NCBI GenBank assembly: GCA_964402965.1 | Contig: CAYODY010000001.1 | Span: 72,002-136,001, forward strand | Direction of reading: 5' to 3' | Length of the DNA stretch: 64,000 bases | Source of the DNA: an uncultured Candidatus Saccharibacteria bacterium | Lineage (GTDB): Bacteria > Patescibacteriota > Doudnabacteria > UBA920 | Shown: positions 750 through 52,087 of the stretch, in pieces | Numbering within the stretch: the first letter of the stretch is position 1 | Layout of the letters: each line of letters starts with the position of its first letter | Notes under the pieces: model-generated | What the model was told of the DNA's origin: nothing | Database searches by the model: none | Seen by the model: the letters and a program-made list of their open reading frames with translations, nothing else | Position numbers and translations under genes: made by a program

Positions 750-1667
750 TTACACTTTCAAATATTTACGCATCGCCATAAGGCTGGAAATGGTGCTGAG
801 AATGAAGGCAATGACCAATTGAACTAAGACAAGCAAAGCAAAAATTCCTAAACTTCCAGTAAATGTAGTGCCAGATGCTGTTAAATAGTGACTCACTTTT
901 GGAAGTAAAGTTGTATACACTGGGAATATAAGTGCGCTGGTAATGATGGTGGCAAGTAAGCTATACACCATTGCTTCTATTATGAATGGTCCACGAATGT
1001 ACCAATTTGTCGCTCCAACCAAACGCATAATTTCAACCTCTTCTCGGCGGTTGTAGATTGTTAGAGTAATGGTGTTGAAAATAACTAGAACTGCAATGCT
1101 AGAAAAGATGATAATTAGCACGATTCCAACAGTTACAATGAATTTTAGCAAGCCATTTAAACGTTCAATTAAAACTCTATTGTCTTCAAAGTTAATTTTT
1201 TCTATTGCAGATTGGTACTTGTCTGAGTTTAACATTTCTGCAATTGCTGGATATTCTTCTAGGTTTTTAGCTTTGATTTGAAGGGTTGCAGGTAATGGAT
1301 TTTCGTTCAATTGCCCAACTGACTCTAAAAGTAGAGGGTCATTGGCGTGATTCTCTTTAAACTGAGTTAACGCTTCTTCTGCAGAAACATAGTTAACGCT
1401 TGCAATTCTGCTGTCTGCAGAGAGTTGGTCGCGGATTTCAAAAATTTGGTTTTCGGCTAAACCGTTTTTAAAGTACGCGGAAATGTCTACGCGTTGTTGA
1501 ATTGTTCGAACAGATGAATTTGTAATTACAAACATTAAAGTCAACACAGAAAGTATTATGAGGGTAATTGTCATAATAAGTGTTGATGCCGCAGCTAACC
1601 AAACATTCCTACGGAAGTTGGTTAGACCCATGCGAATTATTCTGAAAAATGATACTGTATTTATCAC
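750..1667 (-). CDS. ftsX: cell division ABC transporter permease FtsX
   Basis: 305 aa with the FtsX-like permease topology (N-terminal TM, large extracytoplasmic loop, three C-terminal TMs). It lies immediately downstream of ftsE. Confidence 0.85.
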   Translation of the reverse strand: MINTVSFFRIIRMGLTNFRRNVWLAAASTLIMTITLIILSVLTLMFVITNSSVRTIQQRVDISAYFKNGLAENQIFEIRDQLSADSRIASVNYVSAEEALTQFKENHANDPLLLESVGQLNENPLPATLQIKAKNLEEYPAIAEMLNSDKYQSAIEKINFEDNRVLIERLNGLLKFIVTVGIVLIIIFSSIAVLVIFNTITLTIYNRREEVEIMRLVGATNWYIRGPFIIEAMVYSLLATIITSALIFPVYTTLLPKVSHYLTASGTTFTGSLGIFALLVLVQLVIAFILSTISSLMAMRKYLKV

Positions 1668-1678
1668 GTTAGTATAGT

Positions 1679-2356
1679 TTAAAGTTTGTACTTACCCTTT
1701 TCTTGTTCAATCGTAATCTGACCACCCTCAATAGTTATAACGCGCTTGTTGATTTTGTTTACAAGCTCCGAAGCATGAGTGGCAAGGATAACCGTTGTAC
1801 CAAGTTGGTTAATCTTCATTAATAAATCTAAAACCTCAGCTGCGTTTACTGCATCCAAGTTTCCTGTTGGCTCATCTGCTAAAAGTAGAACTGGACGATG
1901 AGCAAGAGAACGAGCAATAGCAACACGTTGGCGTTCTCCACCAGACATTTCGTTAGGGAAACTATCTCTTTTATGAAGAAGACCAACAAGTTCTAAAATT
2001 TTAGGGACATCTTTGTTGATTTTGTCTTTGGTGTGACCAGATACTTCCATAGCAAATGCAACATTTTCAAAAGCTGTGCGGCGTGGGAGTAGTTTAATGT
2101 CTTGAAAAACCATTCCAATCTTTCTGCGCAAGTAAGGTAGGTCAGTTTTTTTAACCTTAGACATATCTATTTCGTCAATGAGGATTTTACCATTGTCTAA
2201 ACTTTCCTCACCGATGATTAGTTTCATTAAAGTAGACTTCCCTGCTCCGGACATTCCGACAACAGAAATAAACTCTCCATGGTTAATTTGGAGATTGATG
2301 CCGTTTAGCGCTTTGTTTTTACCGTAGAATTTTGTTACGTTTTCAAATCGAATCAT
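1679..2356 (-). CDS. ftsE: cell division ATP-binding protein FtsE
   Basis: Walker A GMSGAGKST, ABC signature LSGGERQR and Walker B LLLADEPT. 225 aa, paired with ftsX. Confidence 0.9.
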   Translation of the reverse strand: MIRFENVTKFYGKNKALNGINLQINHGEFISVVGMSGAGKSTLMKLIIGEESLDNGKILIDEIDMSKVKKTDLPYLRRKIGMVFQDIKLLPRRTAFENVAFAMEVSGHTKDKINKDVPKILELVGLLHKRDSFPNEMSGGERQRVAIARSLAHRPVLLLADEPTGNLDAVNAAEVLDLLMKINQLGTTVILATHASELVNKINKRVITIEGGQITIEQEKGKYKL

Positions 2357-2432
2357 GTTGGCTTAATTATACCATAATTTTATGCTTACATACACAGTAC
2401 AAATGTAAATTACATTCGCAAAAGTGGATAAC

Positions 2433-2461
2433 TTGACGTTTTGTAAATATTATTGTATAAT
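2433..2461 (+). promoter_or_regulatory. sigma70-type promoter (TTGACG, 17-nt spacer, TATAAT) for the foreign ORF 2543-3019
   Basis: TTGACG at 2433-2438, a 17-nt spacer, then TATAAT at 2456-2461. A GGAGGA Shine-Dalgarno sits 6 nt before the ATG at 2543. A CCAGG-CGTCT-CCTGG hairpin lies in the leader at 2507-2521. Confidence 0.55.
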
Positions 2462-2542
2462 GCCAAAGTGATTTTTTGAAACGTTCATTGAATCACATAA
2501 ACGTTCCAGGCGTCTCCTGGTTTTGTATGATATGGAGGAAAT

Positions 2543-3019
2543 ATGAAAGACTTAAGCGATGCACGACCATCTGAAGTGCTCGTGGCTCATGGAAAAACGA
2601 CCAAGGTCGACGGCAAAATCTTTAGAACAAAGAAGATCGACAGGATCTACTTGTATGGAGTAGTTTCCGTGAATCTGAACCGCATCAGCCACAGGAGTAG
2701 TCTAACTGAAATCGAAAGAGGTGTCCTTTACTGGCACTTCTTCGGTGGCGAGAAAAAACATCAGTTGGACGATTCCTATCTGGCACAGTTCGGCCGACAT
2801 CTTGCTACATGTGAGATTTGCGTGAGCGAAATGCTCAAGCTTCCAAACTTTGTCGCCCTTGCGGATTGGGAAACTCTCGGGCAGGAACCTGATGACGACA
2901 TTCATCAGTCGTTCTCGGCTGAAGAGCACCGTTTTGACCAGGCCATCCCGAGCCATGTACTGGCGAACCAGATACGCTACGGCGACTGCCGGGACAGGTT
3001 CGACATTAACGACGATTAA
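2543..3019 (+). CDS. hypothetical protein with a compositionally foreign (higher-GC) gene and a putative H-x3-C-x2-C zinc-binding motif
   Basis: 158-aa ORF on the opposite strand to all its neighbours. GC is visibly higher than the flanks, with GC-rich codons (GCG, CGC, GGC). It has its own promoter, a strong SD and a terminator. It contains HLATCEIC (H-x3-C-x2-C) and an acidic C-terminus. I do not recognise the family. Confidence 0.5.
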   Translation: MKDLSDARPSEVLVAHGKTTKVDGKIFRTKKIDRIYLYGVVSVNLNRISHRSSLTEIERGVLYWHFFGGEKKHQLDDSYLAQFGRHLATCEICVSEMLKLPNFVALADWETLGQEPDDDIHQSFSAEEHRFDQAIPSHVLANQIRYGDCRDRFDINDD

Positions 3020-3046
3020 ATTTACGGTCGTCGCAACAACTTTAAA

Positions 3047-3081
3047 GGTTGCACTCTCACGAGTCGCAACCTTTTTTATTT
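3047..3081 (+). terminator. rho-independent terminator after ORF 2543-3019
   Basis: GGTTGCACTC-tcac-GAGTcGCAACC stem (10 bp, one bulge) followed by TTTTTTATTT. Confidence 0.7.
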
Positions 3082-3083
3082 AT

Positions 3084-4175
3084 CTATTGTATTTGACTTT
3101 CTAAATACTTTTCTACAAAGTTATCTAAGTTTCCATTTAGGACTTTATCTGGATCTGTTTCTTCGTATTCTGTGCGATGGTCTTTGACTAATTTGTATGG
3201 GTGTAAAACATAACTACGAATTTGATTCCCCCACTCTGCACTTTTGAATTCCCCGCGGAGTTCTTTTTTTTCTTTGGCTTTCTTTTCATCTTCCAAAGCT
3301 TGCAAGCGCGCGCGAAGAATTTTCATTGCGACTTCTTTGTTTTGATGCTGACTTCGCTCGTTTTGAATACTAACTTTAATTCCAGTAGGAATATGAGTAA
3401 TGGTAATGGCGCTATAGGTCGTGTTTACACTTTGCCCACCTGCACCACTGCTGGTTGAAGCTTTAATTTCTATATCTTTAGGATCAATAGTAATAGCTTC
3501 GGCTTCTTCTAATTGAGGCAGTAGTTCAAGAAGTGCAAAAGATGTTTCGCGAGTATGAGCTGGGTTGAACGGTGATTGTCTAACTAGTCTGTGCACTCCT
3601 GCTTCACTTTTTAGTAAACCATATGCAAAAGGTCCACGCGCTTCAACGGTCACAGATTTTATGCCTGCTTCACCGCCCTTAGACTGGTCGATAATCTCTG
3701 TGTGTAATCCTTTTTGTTCACAGTATCTTAGGTATTGTCTGAGTAACATTTCTGCCCAGTCTTGAGCATCTGTTCCCCCAGCACCTGCATGAATGGAGAA
3801 GATTGCATTATGGTCGTCGTATTGTTTAGACATCAAAACAATAAGCCGATTTTTTACATAGCGCTCTTCTATTTCTGAAACCTGTTTTTCTAGATAGCCA
3901 ACTGTTTCTTCGCTTTCGTCTGTGTTGCTAGTTACAAGCTCTTGGAGTTCTATTAGATTATTTTCAATTGATGACCAAAAATCCACGAACTCTTTAAGTC
4001 CGTTATACTCTTGAGTAATGCTTTGCGCAGTTTCTGGATTATCCCAAAAGTTTGGGACCTGCATTTTATCTTCTAGTTCCAGAATACGTTGTTCTTTCTG
4101 ATCTAAATTCAGCTGGCTCTTTAAATCTTGAACCTGTTGAAGTAAATTTGTAAGTCTTTTAGTGAGTTCGTTCAT
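3084..4175 (-). CDS. prfB: peptide chain release factor 2, uninterrupted (no programmed +1 frameshift)
   Basis: GGQ motif (SGAGGQSVN) and the RF2-specific SPF tripeptide in GVHRLVRQSPFNPAHTRETSFA, which matches the E. coli RF2 SPF region. 363 aa, continuous reading frame. Confidence 0.92.
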   Translation of the reverse strand: MNELTKRLTNLLQQVQDLKSQLNLDQKEQRILELEDKMQVPNFWDNPETAQSITQEYNGLKEFVDFWSSIENNLIELQELVTSNTDESEETVGYLEKQVSEIEERYVKNRLIVLMSKQYDDHNAIFSIHAGAGGTDAQDWAEMLLRQYLRYCEQKGLHTEIIDQSKGGEAGIKSVTVEARGPFAYGLLKSEAGVHRLVRQSPFNPAHTRETSFALLELLPQLEEAEAITIDPKDIEIKASTSSGAGGQSVNTTYSAITITHIPTGIKVSIQNERSQHQNKEVAMKILRARLQALEDEKKAKEKKELRGEFKSAEWGNQIRSYVLHPYKLVKDHRTEYEETDPDKVLNGNLDNFVEKYLESQIQ

Positions 4176-4212
4176 GGGTTTATTATACTGGAAATCTTGC
4201 TTTAAAAATAGG

Positions 4213-4245
4213 TAAGAAAAACCTCTCCAACTTGTGTAGGAGAGG
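4213..4245 (-). terminator. rho-independent terminator downstream of folA (end of the dcd-tmk-thyA-folA operon)
   Basis: On the minus strand: CCTCTCC-tacacaagtt-GGAGAGG followed by TTTTTCTTACCTATTTTT. Confidence 0.6.
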
Positions 4246-4268
4246 CTTTGATGCAGGACTAACTATAG

Positions 4269-4802
4269 TCAGTCCTGGCGTTTTGTATAGGTTATGAAGT
4301 CAAAAATTAATCCATCGGGAGTTTTGTGAGATTCAAAATCTGCAGGATACCAAATCACTGGATCAATTTCTGGGAAGTACCTAAGTTCTCGCATCCCTTC
4401 CGTTGGAAAGGATTTGGCAATTTCAGTGACTTCGATTTCTTCAACTAGCGGCATTGCAGCTTCATAAAGACTTGCACCACCACAAACATAAATGTCTTTA
4501 CCAAAAAATTCACCAACTAGGGTTTCATTTTGGCAAAGAGCAAGGGCTTGCTCTAGGTTAGGGGCAACTAGGACATCATCAGGAACTTCGTAACCAGCAT
4601 TGCTAGTCACTACAATTGTTTTTCTCCCAGAGAGCGGTCTAAACTTGATGGGAATTGATTCCCAAGTTACCCGGCCCATGATGCAAATATTGCCCATGGT
4701 TTTGGCTTTGAAATGCGCCATATCCTCCGAGAGTTGCCAAATGATTTTGCCGCCCGCACCAATTAAGTTGTTCGCGTCTAACGCGACGATTGCTTTGATC
4801 AT
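4269..4802 (-). CDS. folA: dihydrofolate reductase
   Basis: MIKAIVALDANNLIGAGGKIIWQLSEDMAHFKAKTMGNICIMGRVTWESIP is the typical DHFR N-terminus. 177 aa. Confidence 0.9.
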   Translation of the reverse strand: MIKAIVALDANNLIGAGGKIIWQLSEDMAHFKAKTMGNICIMGRVTWESIPIKFRPLSGRKTIVVTSNAGYEVPDDVLVAPNLEQALALCQNETLVGEFFGKDIYVCGGASLYEAAMPLVEEIEVTEIAKSFPTEGMRELRYFPEIDPVIWYPADFESHKTPDGLIFDFITYTKRQD

Positions 4803-4810
4803 AGTACTCC

Positions 4811-5668
4811 TTAAACAGAAACAGGTGCTGAGATTTTCCCTTGATGATTGTAATTAATGAGTTCGATGTTTTCTTTGCGGAATTTCATCAAACCATCAAA
4901 ACCCTTAAAATCCTCTGCGCCTATAAATTGGAGAGTAGGAAGTTCTCCTGGTGTTCGGGAAAGTTGTTCTTCAACTTGATCAACATGGTCGTTGTAAATA
5001 TGAGCGTCCCCGAAAGTATGGATAAATTTCCGCGGTTTCATTCCCATCGTATGCGCGATCATGCAAGTGAGGAGTGCATACGATGAAATATTGAACGGTA
5101 CTCCCAAGAAAAAGTCCGCACTCCGTTGGTACAGTTTGCAAGACAGATGTTGCTCTCCGTTGATTACATCAACCTTGAATTGGAACAAGGTGTGGCAAGG
5201 TGGCAGAGCCACGTTGTCAGCTTCAGCAGGATCCCATCCACTTACGATGTGGCGCCTTGAGTTCGGTTTGTTCTCCAGTTCTCGGTACAACCGTTGAATT
5301 TGGTCGTAACCATTTTTTTCGGGGTAGTCACCGCCGAAACTGCGCCATGTGTAGCCGTAGATTGGACCAAGATCGTTTTCTTCTCGACCGAATCGTGTGG
5401 TTTGTTCTGCAGTCGCCCAGTCATCCCAAATTGTGATATTTTTTTCCTTGAGCGTGGCGTTGTTAGTGTCCCCTGAAAGAAACCAAAAAAGTTCCTCAGC
5501 GACCCAGCGAAACGGAACACTCTTGGTGGTCATAATTGGGAAACCCTTGGTCAAGTCGAACGACATTTGAACTTCACCAAAGAGCGATGTAGTTCCTGTG
5601 CCAGTTCGGTCATCGTGTTTCACGCCATCTCGCAAGATTTGACGTAGAGCATCTTGATATTGTTTCAT
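4811..5668 (-). CDS. thyA: thymidylate synthase ThyA
   Basis: Highly conserved ThyA sequence (DRTGTGT, the catalytic Cys in ALPPCH, FGDAHIY). 285 aa. Confidence 0.95.
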   Translation of the reverse strand: MKQYQDALRQILRDGVKHDDRTGTGTTSLFGEVQMSFDLTKGFPIMTTKSVPFRWVAEELFWFLSGDTNNATLKEKNITIWDDWATAEQTTRFGREENDLGPIYGYTWRSFGGDYPEKNGYDQIQRLYRELENKPNSRRHIVSGWDPAEADNVALPPCHTLFQFKVDVINGEQHLSCKLYQRSADFFLGVPFNISSYALLTCMIAHTMGMKPRKFIHTFGDAHIYNDHVDQVEEQLSRTPGELPTLQFIGAEDFKGFDGLMKFRKENIELINYNHQGKISAPVSV

Positions 5669-23904: not shown

Positions 23905-24042
23905 TTATTACCCTACTGCGCTACAATTAGACTTGCAATAATTACTCTTGCGCTGTTGCGAATTTTATTGATGCGGCTTATGCTTCTGCATAATTTTTTT
24001 GGTTGCGGGGCCGGGATTCGAACCCGGAACCTCAAGGTTATG

Positions 24043-24694
24043 CATACCACTATAGCTTTCGCTACTCTATCGAAATCGATTCGAAATAGATTTGATGGTC
24101 TGGACTTTCTCTTCATCCATCTATATAATGGATGCCTACCATTAAGTCTCTACACCTTCCTGAAAATCTTCAGGCTTGGCTCGGGATTGCCATCTAACAG
24201 GGTTCCCCGAATTTGATAGGATTCACATCTAAATTACTTTAGATGCAGCCCATAGTGAGATAAGTTCAAAGTTTTCTCGGTAATCAGCTGACTTTGGTTT
24301 ACGTTGACGTTTGTCAGTTTCAACTAAGGTAAGCGTGCTACCAAAACTTATAAATATTTCTACTGGAAAAACGTAAAAAATTCGTTTTTCAGGGATGTAT
24401 ACAATAGCGAAGTCAAAATCTTGTTTATTGTACAAACTTCTTATCATAAATCTGCGATTAGTCTTAGTGCGTCTAACATCAACACAATAGTTTTGATCAG
24501 AAGTGTTAAACCAAGCAGATTTTACTTGAAGTTTTACAAGCTTTCCATTTATATCAACTATTAGATCGTAGGAATGTCTGTCGCCCACAGGCTTCGAAAC
24601 TCCCCATCCAAACTCTAATAGTTTTAGAATAGTGGCTTGTTCAGCTACATCGCCTTTTAGTTTAGTATCCATATAAAGAACTTTCTCGAGATTG
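24043..24694 (-). mobile_element. group I self-splicing intron (~652 nt) carrying a homing-endonuclease-like ORF
   Basis: Reading the minus strand downstream of the ORF shows the group I core elements. P is AAATTCGGGGAACC, Q is GCAATCCCGAGCCAAGCC, R is GTGTAGAGACTTAATGG and S is AGAAAGTCCAGACC. A P6 hairpin (CCTGAAGATTTTCAGG) and a P8 hairpin (CATCCATtatatagATGGATG) are present. The 5' exon ends in U and the intron ends in G, consistent with CU|...G|CAUAA splicing. Confidence 0.75.
24229..24672 (-). CDS. intron-encoded PD-(D/E)xK-fold endonuclease (putative homing endonuclease, cf. I-Ssp6803I of the cyanobacterial tRNA-fMet intron)
   Basis: 147 aa. GDVAEQATILKLLEFGWGV...DRHSYDLIVDINGKLVKLQVKS fits a helix-E / D / (Q)xK restriction-fold core. 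It lies entirely inside the intron, 22 nt after the 5' splice site. Confidence 0.6.
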   Translation of the reverse strand: MDTKLKGDVAEQATILKLLEFGWGVSKPVGDRHSYDLIVDINGKLVKLQVKSAWFNTSDQNYCVDVRRTKTNRRFMIRSLYNKQDFDFAIVYIPEKRIFYVFPVEIFISFGSTLTLVETDKRQRKPKSADYRENFELISLWAASKVI

Positions 24695-24879
24695 AGCCTT
24701 GCGAGCTGCCAATTGCTCTACCCCGCGTCAATATATATACCAAAAGGTACTTGGAGATTATATCACTATTACTAGGATTTGGCAAGGTTTTAGGTAAAAT
24801 TTATCATAAATTTAGTCAAGTAAAACAAAACCGCCCCTTGCGGAACGGTTTCGTCGATTGCTTCGAAGCAATTATCGAA

Positions 24880-25056
24880 TTAACGACGACGCTTCTTAGC
24901 AGCTGGCTTACGCTTTGCAGCTGGCTTACGCTTTGCTACTTTACGCTTAGCTGGCTTTTTAGCGGCAGCTTTTTTAGCTGGACGCTTTGCTACTTTACGC
25001 TTTGCAGCTTTTTTAGCTGGTGCGCGCTTTGCAGCTTTTCGCTTTTTTACGGCCAT
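24880..25056 (-). CDS. small Lys/Ala-rich basic protein (histone H1-like / HU-unrelated nucleoid-associated candidate), 58 aa
   Basis: Minus-strand ORF translates as MAVKKRKAAKRAPAKKAAKRKVAKRPAKKAAAKKPAKRKVAKRKPAAKRKPAAKKRRR. It is missing from the ORF track, probably because it is under 60 aa. GGAGA SD 10 nt upstream; TAA stop at 24880-24882. Confidence 0.6.
   Translation of the reverse strand: MAVKKRKAAKRAPAKKAAKRKVAKRPAKKAAAKKPAKRKVAKRKPAAKRKPAAKKRRR
24890..25050. repeat. tandem/imperfect direct repeats underlying the Lys/Ala-rich ORF
   Basis: Perfect 18-bp tandem duplication agctggcttacgctttgc at 24901-24918 and 24919-24936. The 20-mer cgctttgctactttacgctt occurs at 24929-24948 and 24983-25002. 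ttttttagctgg occurs at 24970-24981 and 25009-25020. Confidence 0.8.
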
Positions 25057-25269
25057 TGTGGCTAGTCTCCTGAGACAAACTATTTTGGGATTGTCTCAAT
25101 TTAATTTCTACTTCCTCACAACCGAAGTTGCGAAGGCTAAGTAGTACAAGTAATTTTTTTCTTTCTGTTTTTCTATCGTTTAGGTTGCGTAATTTTTTTT
25201 ACGCGTTGTTTCTGTTTCTCAGTCGTTACAATTGAACTAACTAAATTATAAAGTTTTTATGAAGTGAAG

Positions 25270-47430: not shown

Positions 47431-47751
47431 ATGAAGGAAATTAAAGTTTCTCAAGATAATTTTGAACAGGAAGTACTAAAGTCCGATATCCCTGTTTTAG
47501 TTGATTTTTGGGCAGAATGGTGCGGTCCTTGTAAGATTGTTGGACCAATTCTATCAGAACTTTCTGTTGAATATGAAGGAAAGATGAAAATCGCTAAACT
47601 AAATGTTGACGATAATCCTGACCTTACTAGCCGTTACAACGTAATGAGTATTCCAACTATGAAGTTCTTCAAGGGTGGAGAAATTGTTGGAGAGCTTGTT
47701 GGTGCAGCACCAAAGAATATGATAGAAGCAGAAATGGCAAAACATATCTAA
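47431..47751 (+). CDS. trxA: thioredoxin
   Basis: WCGPC active site (FWAEWCGPCK). 106 aa. Confidence 0.93.
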   Translation: MKEIKVSQDNFEQEVLKSDIPVLVDFWAEWCGPCKIVGPILSELSVEYEGKMKIAKLNVDDNPDLTSRYNVMSIPTMKFFKGGEIVGELVGAAPKNMIEAEMAKHI

Positions 47752-50968: not shown

Positions 50969-52087
50969 TTAGATTGCTTCGTATAGATTCTTACCAACTT
51001 TTTTAACTAATTTCTTGTTAGATAATCCTACCAAGATAGTATTGGTTTTTACCATGCGACGTTCCAAAACTTTCTCTATAATTTCTTCTCGAGTAAGAGG
51101 TTTGCCAGCATCTTTTAAGACGTTTACTATGATGTCAGACACAACTCCTGGTTTGTAACCCCATTCGGAAAGTGCATAAATTCCGCGTCCAACCAATACA
51201 AAACGTTTATCTTTAATAAGTTTATTATGAACTGTTTCTTTGTATGCTGTTCTCTTATCTAAACCGTTTTGGTTAATGAGTTCTGTGATTTTTGAGTAAT
51301 GTTCTGGTTTACCATGATGCTTCATCACCAAGTAAGCTTTATCTCCCACATCTTTAGGACGAATTTCATTCCAATGCTGTAATCCAAATTCGCCAAATGG
51401 ATTTTTGTGAATTCCAGTTGCAGTTTGCAAATAATTTAAAATAACGCGTTCAGGAAGTTTTTCTTGGTACTTCTTAAAGAACTCAGATTCCATGAATTTT
51501 TCAATAAATTCATCTGGTTGCAATGGTTTACCGTGATTTTCAAGTAAGGATTTAGTAGTTGTAATGAATTCTGTTAAAAATTCTTTATCAAAACCAAGAT
51601 GTGACCAAGATTGCTTCATGTGTTCATCTGCACCATGTTCTTCAAGTTCAGCCATTAAAGTAAGCAGGAATTTTAGTGCATTTACATCTTCATCTGAGTT
51701 TGCACCTAAGTGACCCATTAAAGTAGATTCGGCCATGATTCCGCCGTGCTCTGAGATAGTAGTAAGCAATAAATCACGCGCAGCCAAAAAAGAATCCAAT
51801 TGTTGGACACCACGTTTTAAGTTCTTCAAAAGATCTTTTTCAATCTGACGAACACGTTCTCGTGTTAAACCTTGCTCTTCACCAACTGTTTTTAGTGTTT
51901 GCATTTCTTCACCGGAAAGACCATAACGCTTAGAAAGAATCGTTTTTTCACGATCTTTTAGGGGGTCTAAAATCTTACCGATAATAAGGTTTAGCTCAAA
52001 TTGTTGCAAAGATTCCTTTTGATGGGAGTCGATGATTGTGTCTAAAATACCCATAATAAACCGATTATAACATAGATTTTGAACCAT
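50969..52087 (-). CDS. sigma-70 region-4-like HTH protein with two C-terminal HARE-HTH-like winged-helix modules (putative regulator)
   Basis: ILSKRYGLSGEEMQTLKTVGEEQGLTRERVRQIEKDLLKNL is a sigma region 4.2-type HTH. AYLVMKHHGKPEHYSKITELINQNGL...RFVLVGRGIYALSEW, and again IIVNVLKDAGKPLTREEIIEKVLE...LVKKVGKNLYEAI, resemble HARE-HTH domains. Confidence 0.5.
   Translation of the reverse strand: MVQNLCYNRFIMGILDTIIDSHQKESLQQFELNLIIGKILDPLKDREKTILSKRYGLSGEEMQTLKTVGEEQGLTRERVRQIEKDLLKNLKRGVQQLDSFLAARDLLLTTISEHGGIMAESTLMGHLGANSDEDVNALKFLLTLMAELEEHGADEHMKQSWSHLGFDKEFLTEFITTTKSLLENHGKPLQPDEFIEKFMESEFFKKYQEKLPERVILNYLQTATGIHKNPFGEFGLQHWNEIRPKDVGDKAYLVMKHHGKPEHYSKITELINQNGLDKRTAYKETVHNKLIKDKRFVLVGRGIYALSEWGYKPGVVSDIIVNVLKDAGKPLTREEIIEKVLERRMVKTNTILVGLSNKKLVKKVGKNLYEAI

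Follow-up and report, generated by a model that had tools for sequence, protein, structure and literature searches.

A foreign-looking single-gene cassette with possible zinc anti-sigma likeness at the prfB-ftsE junction of a Patescibacteria genome

The DNA analysed here is a stretch of 64,000 nucleotides with a GC content of 37%, referred to below as the window, from the genome of an uncultured, ultra-small bacterium of the Patescibacteria (candidate phyla radiation, CPR). At the locus of interest, the order of genes on the minus strand is prfB (3084-4175), ftsE (1679-2356) and ftsX. Between prfB and ftsE, an open reading frame (ORF) is found on the plus strand at 2543-3019 (stop codon included), convergent with prfB and divergent from ftsE. 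The ORF encodes a soluble protein of 158 residues with a basic N-terminus and an acidic C-terminus. Our assessment is evenly balanced as to the full account that we propose for this gene, namely that a genuine cassette arrived by introgression and encodes a soluble protein of the zinc anti-sigma (ZAS) type whose occurrence is lineage-restricted.

Evidence for a genuine protein-coding gene

The cassette is found with the same ftsE and prfB junctions in 13 independent metagenome assemblies, obtained from different sequencing runs, with 98.5-100% identity. Ten independent assemblies carry a 99% identical protein (P0001) between ftsE and prfB, and their DNA is 98.5-99.5% identical over positions 1601-4300. 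Three further assemblies carry either the window allele or two other alleles. A first-pass annotation, made from the sequence alone, had left room for a chimeric or contaminant insertion. Thirteen independent assemblies with the same junctions refute it. A chimera made during assembly, or foreign DNA from a contaminant joined in between ftsE and prfB, would have the sharp compositional step at the ORF as its sole support. Besides the independent assembly of the cassette from 13 sequencing runs, a diverged homologue at the same junction in another lineage (protein P0003, contig L091, described below) and a terminator that serves both convergent genes stand against it, and we regard its probability as practically negligible.

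Twenty-four changes separate the four DNA alleles. Of these, 8 are non-synonymous and 16 synonymous, the latter always falling at a third codon position. Given 99.7 synonymous and 374.3 non-synonymous sites, the ratio of non-synonymous to synonymous polymorphism per site (pN/pS) among the four alleles is about 0.13. This ratio, together with the third-position synonymous changes, indicates translation of the frame and purifying selection on it. In AT-rich genomes, islands of high GC content are frequently RNA genes, and ORFs in other frames overlap this one, so that we had to consider whether the stretch is a structured RNA that is not translated, or the ORF spurious. However, neither Rfam (gathering thresholds and E ≤ 10) nor ARAGORN revealed any RNA gene, tRNA and transfer-messenger RNA included, in 2300-3150. 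The polymorphism pattern argues against this explanation too. Moreover, P0003 shares protein similarity and a motif with the window protein though the DNA is not alignable, and a Shine-Dalgarno sequence (SD) is present and correctly placed in both orthologues. A non-coding RNA or spurious ORF is thus very improbable, and the gene is almost certainly real.

A cassette with its own expression signals

As judged from its sequence signals, the cassette is a monocistronic, self-contained transcription unit of about 690 bp, with a predicted promoter, an SD, the ORF and a bidirectional terminator. The best promoter-like site within 2200-3300 is a sigma-70-type promoter on the plus strand at 2433-2461. 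It is composed of TTGACG (2433-2438), a 17-nt spacer and TATAAT (2456-2461), and 11 of its 12 positions agree with the consensus, as expected from its first description as a textbook promoter. The inferred 5' leader (2468-2542, plus strand, about 75 nt) contains the SD GGAGGA at 2534-2539, 3 nt ahead of the ATG. A bidirectional intrinsic terminator closes the unit at 3044-3081; it is made of a hairpin (3044-3074) followed by a T-run and is common to the ORF and prfB. On the plus strand, the hairpin is followed by TTTTTTATTTAT and has a folding free energy of -16.6 kcal/mol (z = -4.35), in line with the strong terminator first described. The minus strand folds too (-20.9, z = -5.0), so that the terminator is bidirectional. 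Its counterpart in L091 has a 12-bp stem with a GGTTGC...GCAACC core. Overall, the promoter, SD and terminator of the first-pass annotation, and the self-contained unit that they delimit, all hold.

Two further elements of that annotation hold in part. A 5-bp CCAGG/CCTGG hairpin is indeed present in the leader, at 2506-2520, but it does not appear in the minimum-energy fold, and the leader as a whole has a z of -1.4 against shuffles. A leader attenuator or riboswitch was considered and rejected, as the fold is no better than that of shuffles and the L091 leader is not alignable. The 6-bp inverted repeat reported upstream corresponds to a perfect palindrome, AATGTAAATTACATT, at 2402-2416, located between the divergent promoters of ftsE and of the ORF. 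Its arms are 7 bp long, with one central base. Such a repeat is no more than expected by chance, since the window background contains 1.6 perfect inverted repeats with 6-bp arms per kb. The palindrome was rejected as an operator because of this density and because it is not conserved in L091.

A gene restricted to two related lineages

We searched 1.84 billion cluster representatives, which cover about 15 billion proteins, exhaustively with HMMER and obtained five matches. Two of them are credible: P0001, from the same species, and P0003, a protein of 136 residues (E = 2e-7; 28% identity over 111 residues). The three others (P0002, P0004 and P0005) are long repeat proteins and were rejected as spurious. 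The family alignment, used as the query of a word-indexed profile search, added no further member, and no relatives were found in phage genomes, plasmids, IMG/VR or PHROGs.

The gene for P0003 is found on a metagenome contig of 1.7 kb (L091). As in the window, it has ftsE and prfB on either side and runs in the opposite direction to both. At the amino acid level, FtsE and PrfB of this contig are 91% and 86% identical to those of the window. The P0003 gene has its own promoter-like sequence, SD and terminator. Homology between the window and L091 runs through the ftsE promoter and then collapses, and the promoters and leaders of the two cassettes are not alignable. In the next-closest relatives found (L012, L092, L093, L094 and L169; FtsE 75-82% and RF2 61-68% identical), the gene is absent; the prfB-ftsE gap is only 57-110 bp long and contains no trace of it. 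Looking for the gene in relatives, as initially advised, therefore separates the window species and L091, which carry it, from five lineages that do not. In the databases searched, the gene is nearly an orphan, and its family has members in only two lineages, both from one clade of Patescibacteria.

Composition and origin of the window copy

The composition of the ORF is foreign to the genome. Its GC content is 0.495, as compared with a mean of 0.376 +/- 0.035 for the 58 ORFs of the window (z = +3.4). GC content at third codon positions (GC3) is 0.579 as compared with 0.298 +/- 0.069 (z = +4.1). For both quantities, the ORF is the top outlier. An index similar to the codon adaptation index (CAI-like), calculated with all other window genes as the reference set, is 0.507 against 0.711 +/- 0.044 (z = -4.7), the minimum in the window. 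These values bear out the foreign GC content and codon choice noted at first. The codons put forward as examples need correction: GCG and CGC are each used only twice, and the excess chiefly concerns GAC, CAG, ATC, GGC and CTG.

In the window, the GC3 of the ORF (0.58) stands well above that of its flanks (0.28-0.32). In L091, the ORF has a GC3 of 0.55 and the flanking genes have values of 0.48-0.51. Four-fold degenerate sites are saturated between the two lineages, with only 21 of 55 identical in ftsE and 12 of 68 in prfB. Saturated synonymous sites and a non-host GC3 together argue that the window copy arrived, or was replaced, after the lineages split. The presence in L091 of a homologue at the same junction, with a host-like GC3, points to a GC-richer relative with the same locus as the likely source. 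Thus, the window copy is probably a recent import from a relative. The import likely occurred by introgression or allelic replacement at the homologous locus, rather than from an unrelated donor or by a mobile element. Accordingly, the recent horizontal acquisition proposed at first keeps its support from foreign composition and patchy distribution, but the homologue at the same junction in the sister lineage makes introgression the more fitting description. Around the cassette, no target-site duplication or terminal inverted repeat was found, only short, low-identity chance pairs, and the cassette has no mobility gene and no adjacent tRNA.

The alleles also bear traces of exchange. In L173, 17 differences are packed in 2737-2857, with none in the 186 bp upstream, in the terminator or in 1092 bp of prfB. 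Differences between the common allele and that of the window lie mainly in 2887-2995. The common ORF sequence is identical on at least 3 flanking haplotypes, where ftsE differs at 0 to 18 positions. As read from these patterns, the alleles are recombination mosaics and exchange appears to be ongoing within the population. In its atypical GC3 and codons, its patchiness, its conserved backbone and its mosaic alleles, the window gene resembles the ORFan and genomic-islet genes that are exchanged by homologous recombination. It differs from them by the lack of a mobility gene, repeats and tRNA, and by being a single gene with its own expression signals.

Two observations weigh against a recent import. 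We found no donor for the introgression, and the ends of ftsE and prfB beside the cassette do not show GC-rich recombination patches. The gene could instead be an old resident, inserted once in the ancestor of the clade, with a GC content kept by selection or by recombination-associated GC bias. The unpatched ends of ftsE and prfB would fit such a history, as would the homologue at the same junction in the sister lineage and the promoter and leader of the cassette, which are AT-rich like the host. The gene is also a recombination hotspot, which could favour GC-biased conversion. However, the recombination-associated GC effects reported in bacteria are far below a GC3 gap of 0.28. With saturated synonymous sites, a resident gene should already show the GC3 of its host. 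Finally, the whole cassette, regulatory DNA included, is unalignable between the two lineages, whereas the neighbouring ftsE promoter is conserved. We consider the old-resident history unlikely.

Resemblance of the protein core to zinc anti-sigma domains

The window protein is soluble, with a maximum 19-residue hydropathy of 1.06 and no transmembrane segment. The first 50 residues are basic. The acidic tail pointed out at first is confirmed, the last 50 residues containing 13 D/E for 4 K/R. The H-x3-C-x2-C motif is also as described; it is formed by H86, C90 and C93, encoded at 2798-2821. These three residues are invariant in all five sequences (the four alleles and P0003). In allele P0007, residues between the ligands vary (T89S, I92S) while the histidine and both cysteines are kept. 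Columns common to both orthologues include W64, H65, F67, G69, H73, L75, H86 and L87, followed by C90, E91, C93, S95, L98, P101 and F103. As stated in the first-pass annotation, the protein belongs to no recognised family: Pfam, PHROGs and PADLOC gave no match, and NCBIfam gave only MtrR, far below threshold.

Sequence searches in the PDB brought up anti-sigma factors. With P0003 alone, the first match was RslA (3hug_B; E = 0.048), then Fin (5msl; E = 0.74). The family profile matched DdvA (8rlz; E = 0.16) and RslA. We then compared the family with an alignment of four solved ZAS domains using hhalign. The RslA, DdvA and RsiW segments of this alignment were taken from PDB match alignments, and the RsrA segment is a wild-type sequence, which matched 5frf in the PDB search except for engineered cysteine substitutions. 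A region resembling ZAS helices II-III was aligned at residues 74-107 (2762-2863, plus strand), with a probability of 91-92% and P of about 1e-6. To control for the motif, we kept the H/C/C columns in place and shuffled the remaining 57 columns of residues 54-113. The observed score was 39.7. None of 200 shuffles reached it (mean 16.7, sd 4.7, maximum 30.1), and the resemblance to ZAS domains therefore exceeds the motif itself. The anti-sigma-type likeness suggested at first thus holds beyond the three ligand residues.

The window protein shares H-x3-C-x2-C with the ZAS proteins RsrA (5frf), RslA (3hug_B), RsiW (5wuq_C) and DdvA (8rlz_A). The helix II-III flanks match as well, as seen from LAQFGRHLATCEICVSEML in the window family and AQAFGQHLADCEKCQVELT in DdvA. 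Like RsrA, the protein is small and soluble. Unlike ZAS proteins, it has about 52 extra N-terminal residues and fails the zf-HC2 model, and no extracytoplasmic function (ECF) sigma gene is adjacent to, or co-transcribed with, its ORF. In a low-confidence AlphaFold2 model based on five sequences (predicted local distance difference test score, pLDDT, 44.6), helices span residues 56-68, 77-89, 91-98 and 103-112. In this model, H86 ends one helix and the CxxC starts the next, as in ZAS domains.

Codon 53 (2699-2701, plus strand) encodes a candidate fourth zinc ligand. It is Ser (AGT) in the window allele, Cys (TGT) in the other alleles, and Cys in P0003. C53 meets the helix-I cysteine of ZAS domains only in a relaxed, low-confidence hhalign alignment.

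Several points weigh against the ZAS assignment. No match to Pfam zf-HC2 (PF13490) was obtained at E ≤ 10 with the window protein, P0001, P0003 or motif segments. The E-values of the PDB searches are borderline, from 0.05 to 0.8. The hhalign comparison was picked after the motif had been seen, and its confident part covers 32-34 columns only, leaving helix I outside. Cys53 is present in four of five sequences (P0001, P0007, P0008 and P0003) and replaced by Ser in the window allele. It sits 33 residues before H86, as compared with about 23-26 residues between the helix-I ligand and the histidine in classical ZAS domains. Structure predictions are unreliable (pLDDT 34 and 44.6), and searches by fold gave no useful information. 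The cassette is monocistronic and flanked by ftsE and prfB, with no sigma gene beside it, so that the protein does not belong to a classical sigma/anti-sigma gene pair. Taking both sides together, the sequence comparisons slightly favour a ZAS-like zinc protein. By analogy with the proteins above, it might act as an anti-sigma factor, but we are rather doubtful that it does.

The only sigma-like ORF in the window is located 48 kb away (50969-52087, minus strand). It encodes a 372-residue protein of unusual architecture that combines Sigma70_r4 (E = 2e-12) and HARE-HTH (E = 2e-14) domains. In the literature, our search found nothing relevant that links Patescibacteria with an anti-sigma factor.

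Fin (YabK), the Bacillus anti-sigma-F protein, offers another comparison. It is a small, soluble, stand-alone zinc protein whose gene lies away from that of its sigma factor, and it acts on RNA polymerase. P0003 matches it through the H...CEDC region, though not significantly. Fin is about half the size of the window protein, and no common fold was seen.

A second, weaker resemblance has to be weighed against the ZAS-like reading. Residues 31-77 align with the helix-turn-helix (HTH) of MtrR/AcrR through GVLYWHF (NCBIfam E = 0.001; PDB E = 0.1). With hhalign, a small TetR_N alignment, in which three of the four sequences were entered by hand, gave a probability of 74% over 26 columns, and none of 150 shuffles with YWHF fixed reached the score. 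The gene is divergent from an operon of the ABC (ATP-binding cassette) type with a 15-bp palindrome between them, a placement typical of TetR regulators. It could thus encode a degenerate TetR-type regulator that controls ftsEX and itself through the palindrome. However, Pfam TetR_N (PF00440) is not matched, and the MtrR match in NCBIfam scores 18.9 bits for a cutoff of 280. The alignment requires a 3-residue insertion in the turn of the HTH. The GxLYWHF segment belongs to the window protein, but the HTH is not conserved in its orthologue: P0003 carries a pair of prolines where helix 2 would be, and it gave no TetR match. The HTH-like segment is followed by only about 83 residues, in which the ZAS-like motif lies, too few for a ligand-binding and dimerisation domain, which takes about 130. 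Finally, the palindrome is not conserved in L091, and relatives without the gene have the same ftsE promoter. A TetR-type regulator is therefore improbable. The TetR-like segment may be a relic of the ancestry of the gene.

Host backbone and other features of the window

The left edge of the cassette is marked by the ftsE promoter (2366-2374, minus strand), which belongs to the host backbone. It consists of an extended -10 element (TGGTATAAT) located 9 nt before the ftsE ATG, and no SD is present. The extended -10 is kept in the sister lineage L091. A TGnTATAAT-like box is found at or near the same place in the insert-free L013 and L095, and in a less exact form in L012, L093 and L011. Across L091 and the next-closest relatives, a TATAAT-type -10 precedes ftsE in all cases, with the extended TGnTATAAT form in most. 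Since relatives all have this box, ftsE never relied on read-through from prfB. In the window, in L091 and in several relatives, the -10 box is within about 10 nt of the start codon and there is no SD. This arrangement suggests that the ftsEX mRNA is leaderless in the window and several relatives.

The best species-representative matches to the window proteins have 55-66% (release factor 2, RF2) and 70-77% (FtsE) identity, and come from metagenome-assembled genomes of the Candidatus Doudnabacteria type and other Patescibacteria. The prfB-ftsE junction of other Patescibacteria occasionally contains unrelated inserts: a UbiA prenyltransferase in L011 (1010-1873), an IS200-like Y1 transposase in L159 (1977-2663), and ORFs of no known kind in L034, L038 and L064. 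The junction is therefore a recurrent insertion point.

The prfB gene (3084-4175, minus strand) is one unbroken ORF of 363 residues with SPF and GGQ motifs, and its product is thus RF2. It does not have the programmed +1 frameshift that many bacteria have. The folA and thyA genes (4269-5668, minus strand) have GC3 values of 0.39 and 0.45, as compared with about 0.30, and by CAI-like index they rank fourth and third from the bottom of the window, respectively. These two genes may have been acquired or exchanged too. In one strain assembly (L003, 8074-8930), thyA is called in two fragments of 83 and 141 residues. When it is compared with the window without gaps, 163 mismatches are counted over 858 bp, which fits an indel or a frameshift in the strain or in the assembly.

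The ORF had been presented as one of only two plus-strand genes in the window. Indeed, the only other one with a family match is a thioredoxin gene (47431-47751), but a further plus-strand ORF without a Pfam hit is found at 24751-25065. Elsewhere in the window, on the minus strand, an initiator-type tRNA(CAU) gene (24003-24727) is interrupted in its anticodon loop by a group I intron about 650 nt long (Rfam RF00028, 70.4 bits, 24080-24267). The exons were read by eye, and ARAGORN made no call. The intron contains an ORF (24229-24672) for a 147-residue PD-(D/E)XK endonuclease (PF11645, E = 8e-47).

Discussion

The gene defines a new family, a very small one, and the core of this family is a variant form of a motif class already known. 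Our working scheme is as follows. The cassette sits at the prfB-ftsE junction of a small Patescibacteria clade, head-on to nearly all genes. Recombination would have brought it from a GC-richer relative holding the gene at the same junction. The core of the protein, from about residue 53 to residue 110, would have the layout of the part of a ZAS-type anti-sigma domain that binds zinc. Zinc would be bound through H86, C90 and C93, and possibly C53. The protein would then most likely act through protein-protein contacts, as a zinc- or thiol-dependent regulator that sequesters a component of transcription, be it a sigma-type domain or RNA polymerase, as RsrA, RslA, RsiW and Fin do.

One can go a step further and imagine a soluble, stand-alone ZAS-type zinc/thiol switch that works without an ECF sigma factor, acts on the housekeeping transcription machinery of a reduced genome and spreads between related lineages as a self-contained cassette, head-on at the prfB-ftsE junction. 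Its targets might be the primary sigma factor, RNA polymerase (as for Fin) or the protein with Sigma70_r4 and HARE-HTH domains. With Cys or Ser at position 53, the natural alleles would differ in how the switch is tuned, or in whether it works at all. This extension is speculative, and we hold it to be decidedly unlikely.

Orphan genes are common in genomes of this kind, and one more, even with a suggestive motif, will not surprise a specialist. The value of the present case lies in having established that the gene exists and is no artefact. In addition, the locus offers a small but clear example of gene flow between related uncultured lineages, with a compositionally young cassette on a conserved backbone and mosaic alleles that can be seen directly in public metagenomes. 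Patescibacteria have tiny genomes and few known regulators. If the assignment is true, a lineage-restricted, recombining ZAS-like gene would be a rare handle on the regulation of transcription in these organisms, and also on how they sense redox or metal stress.

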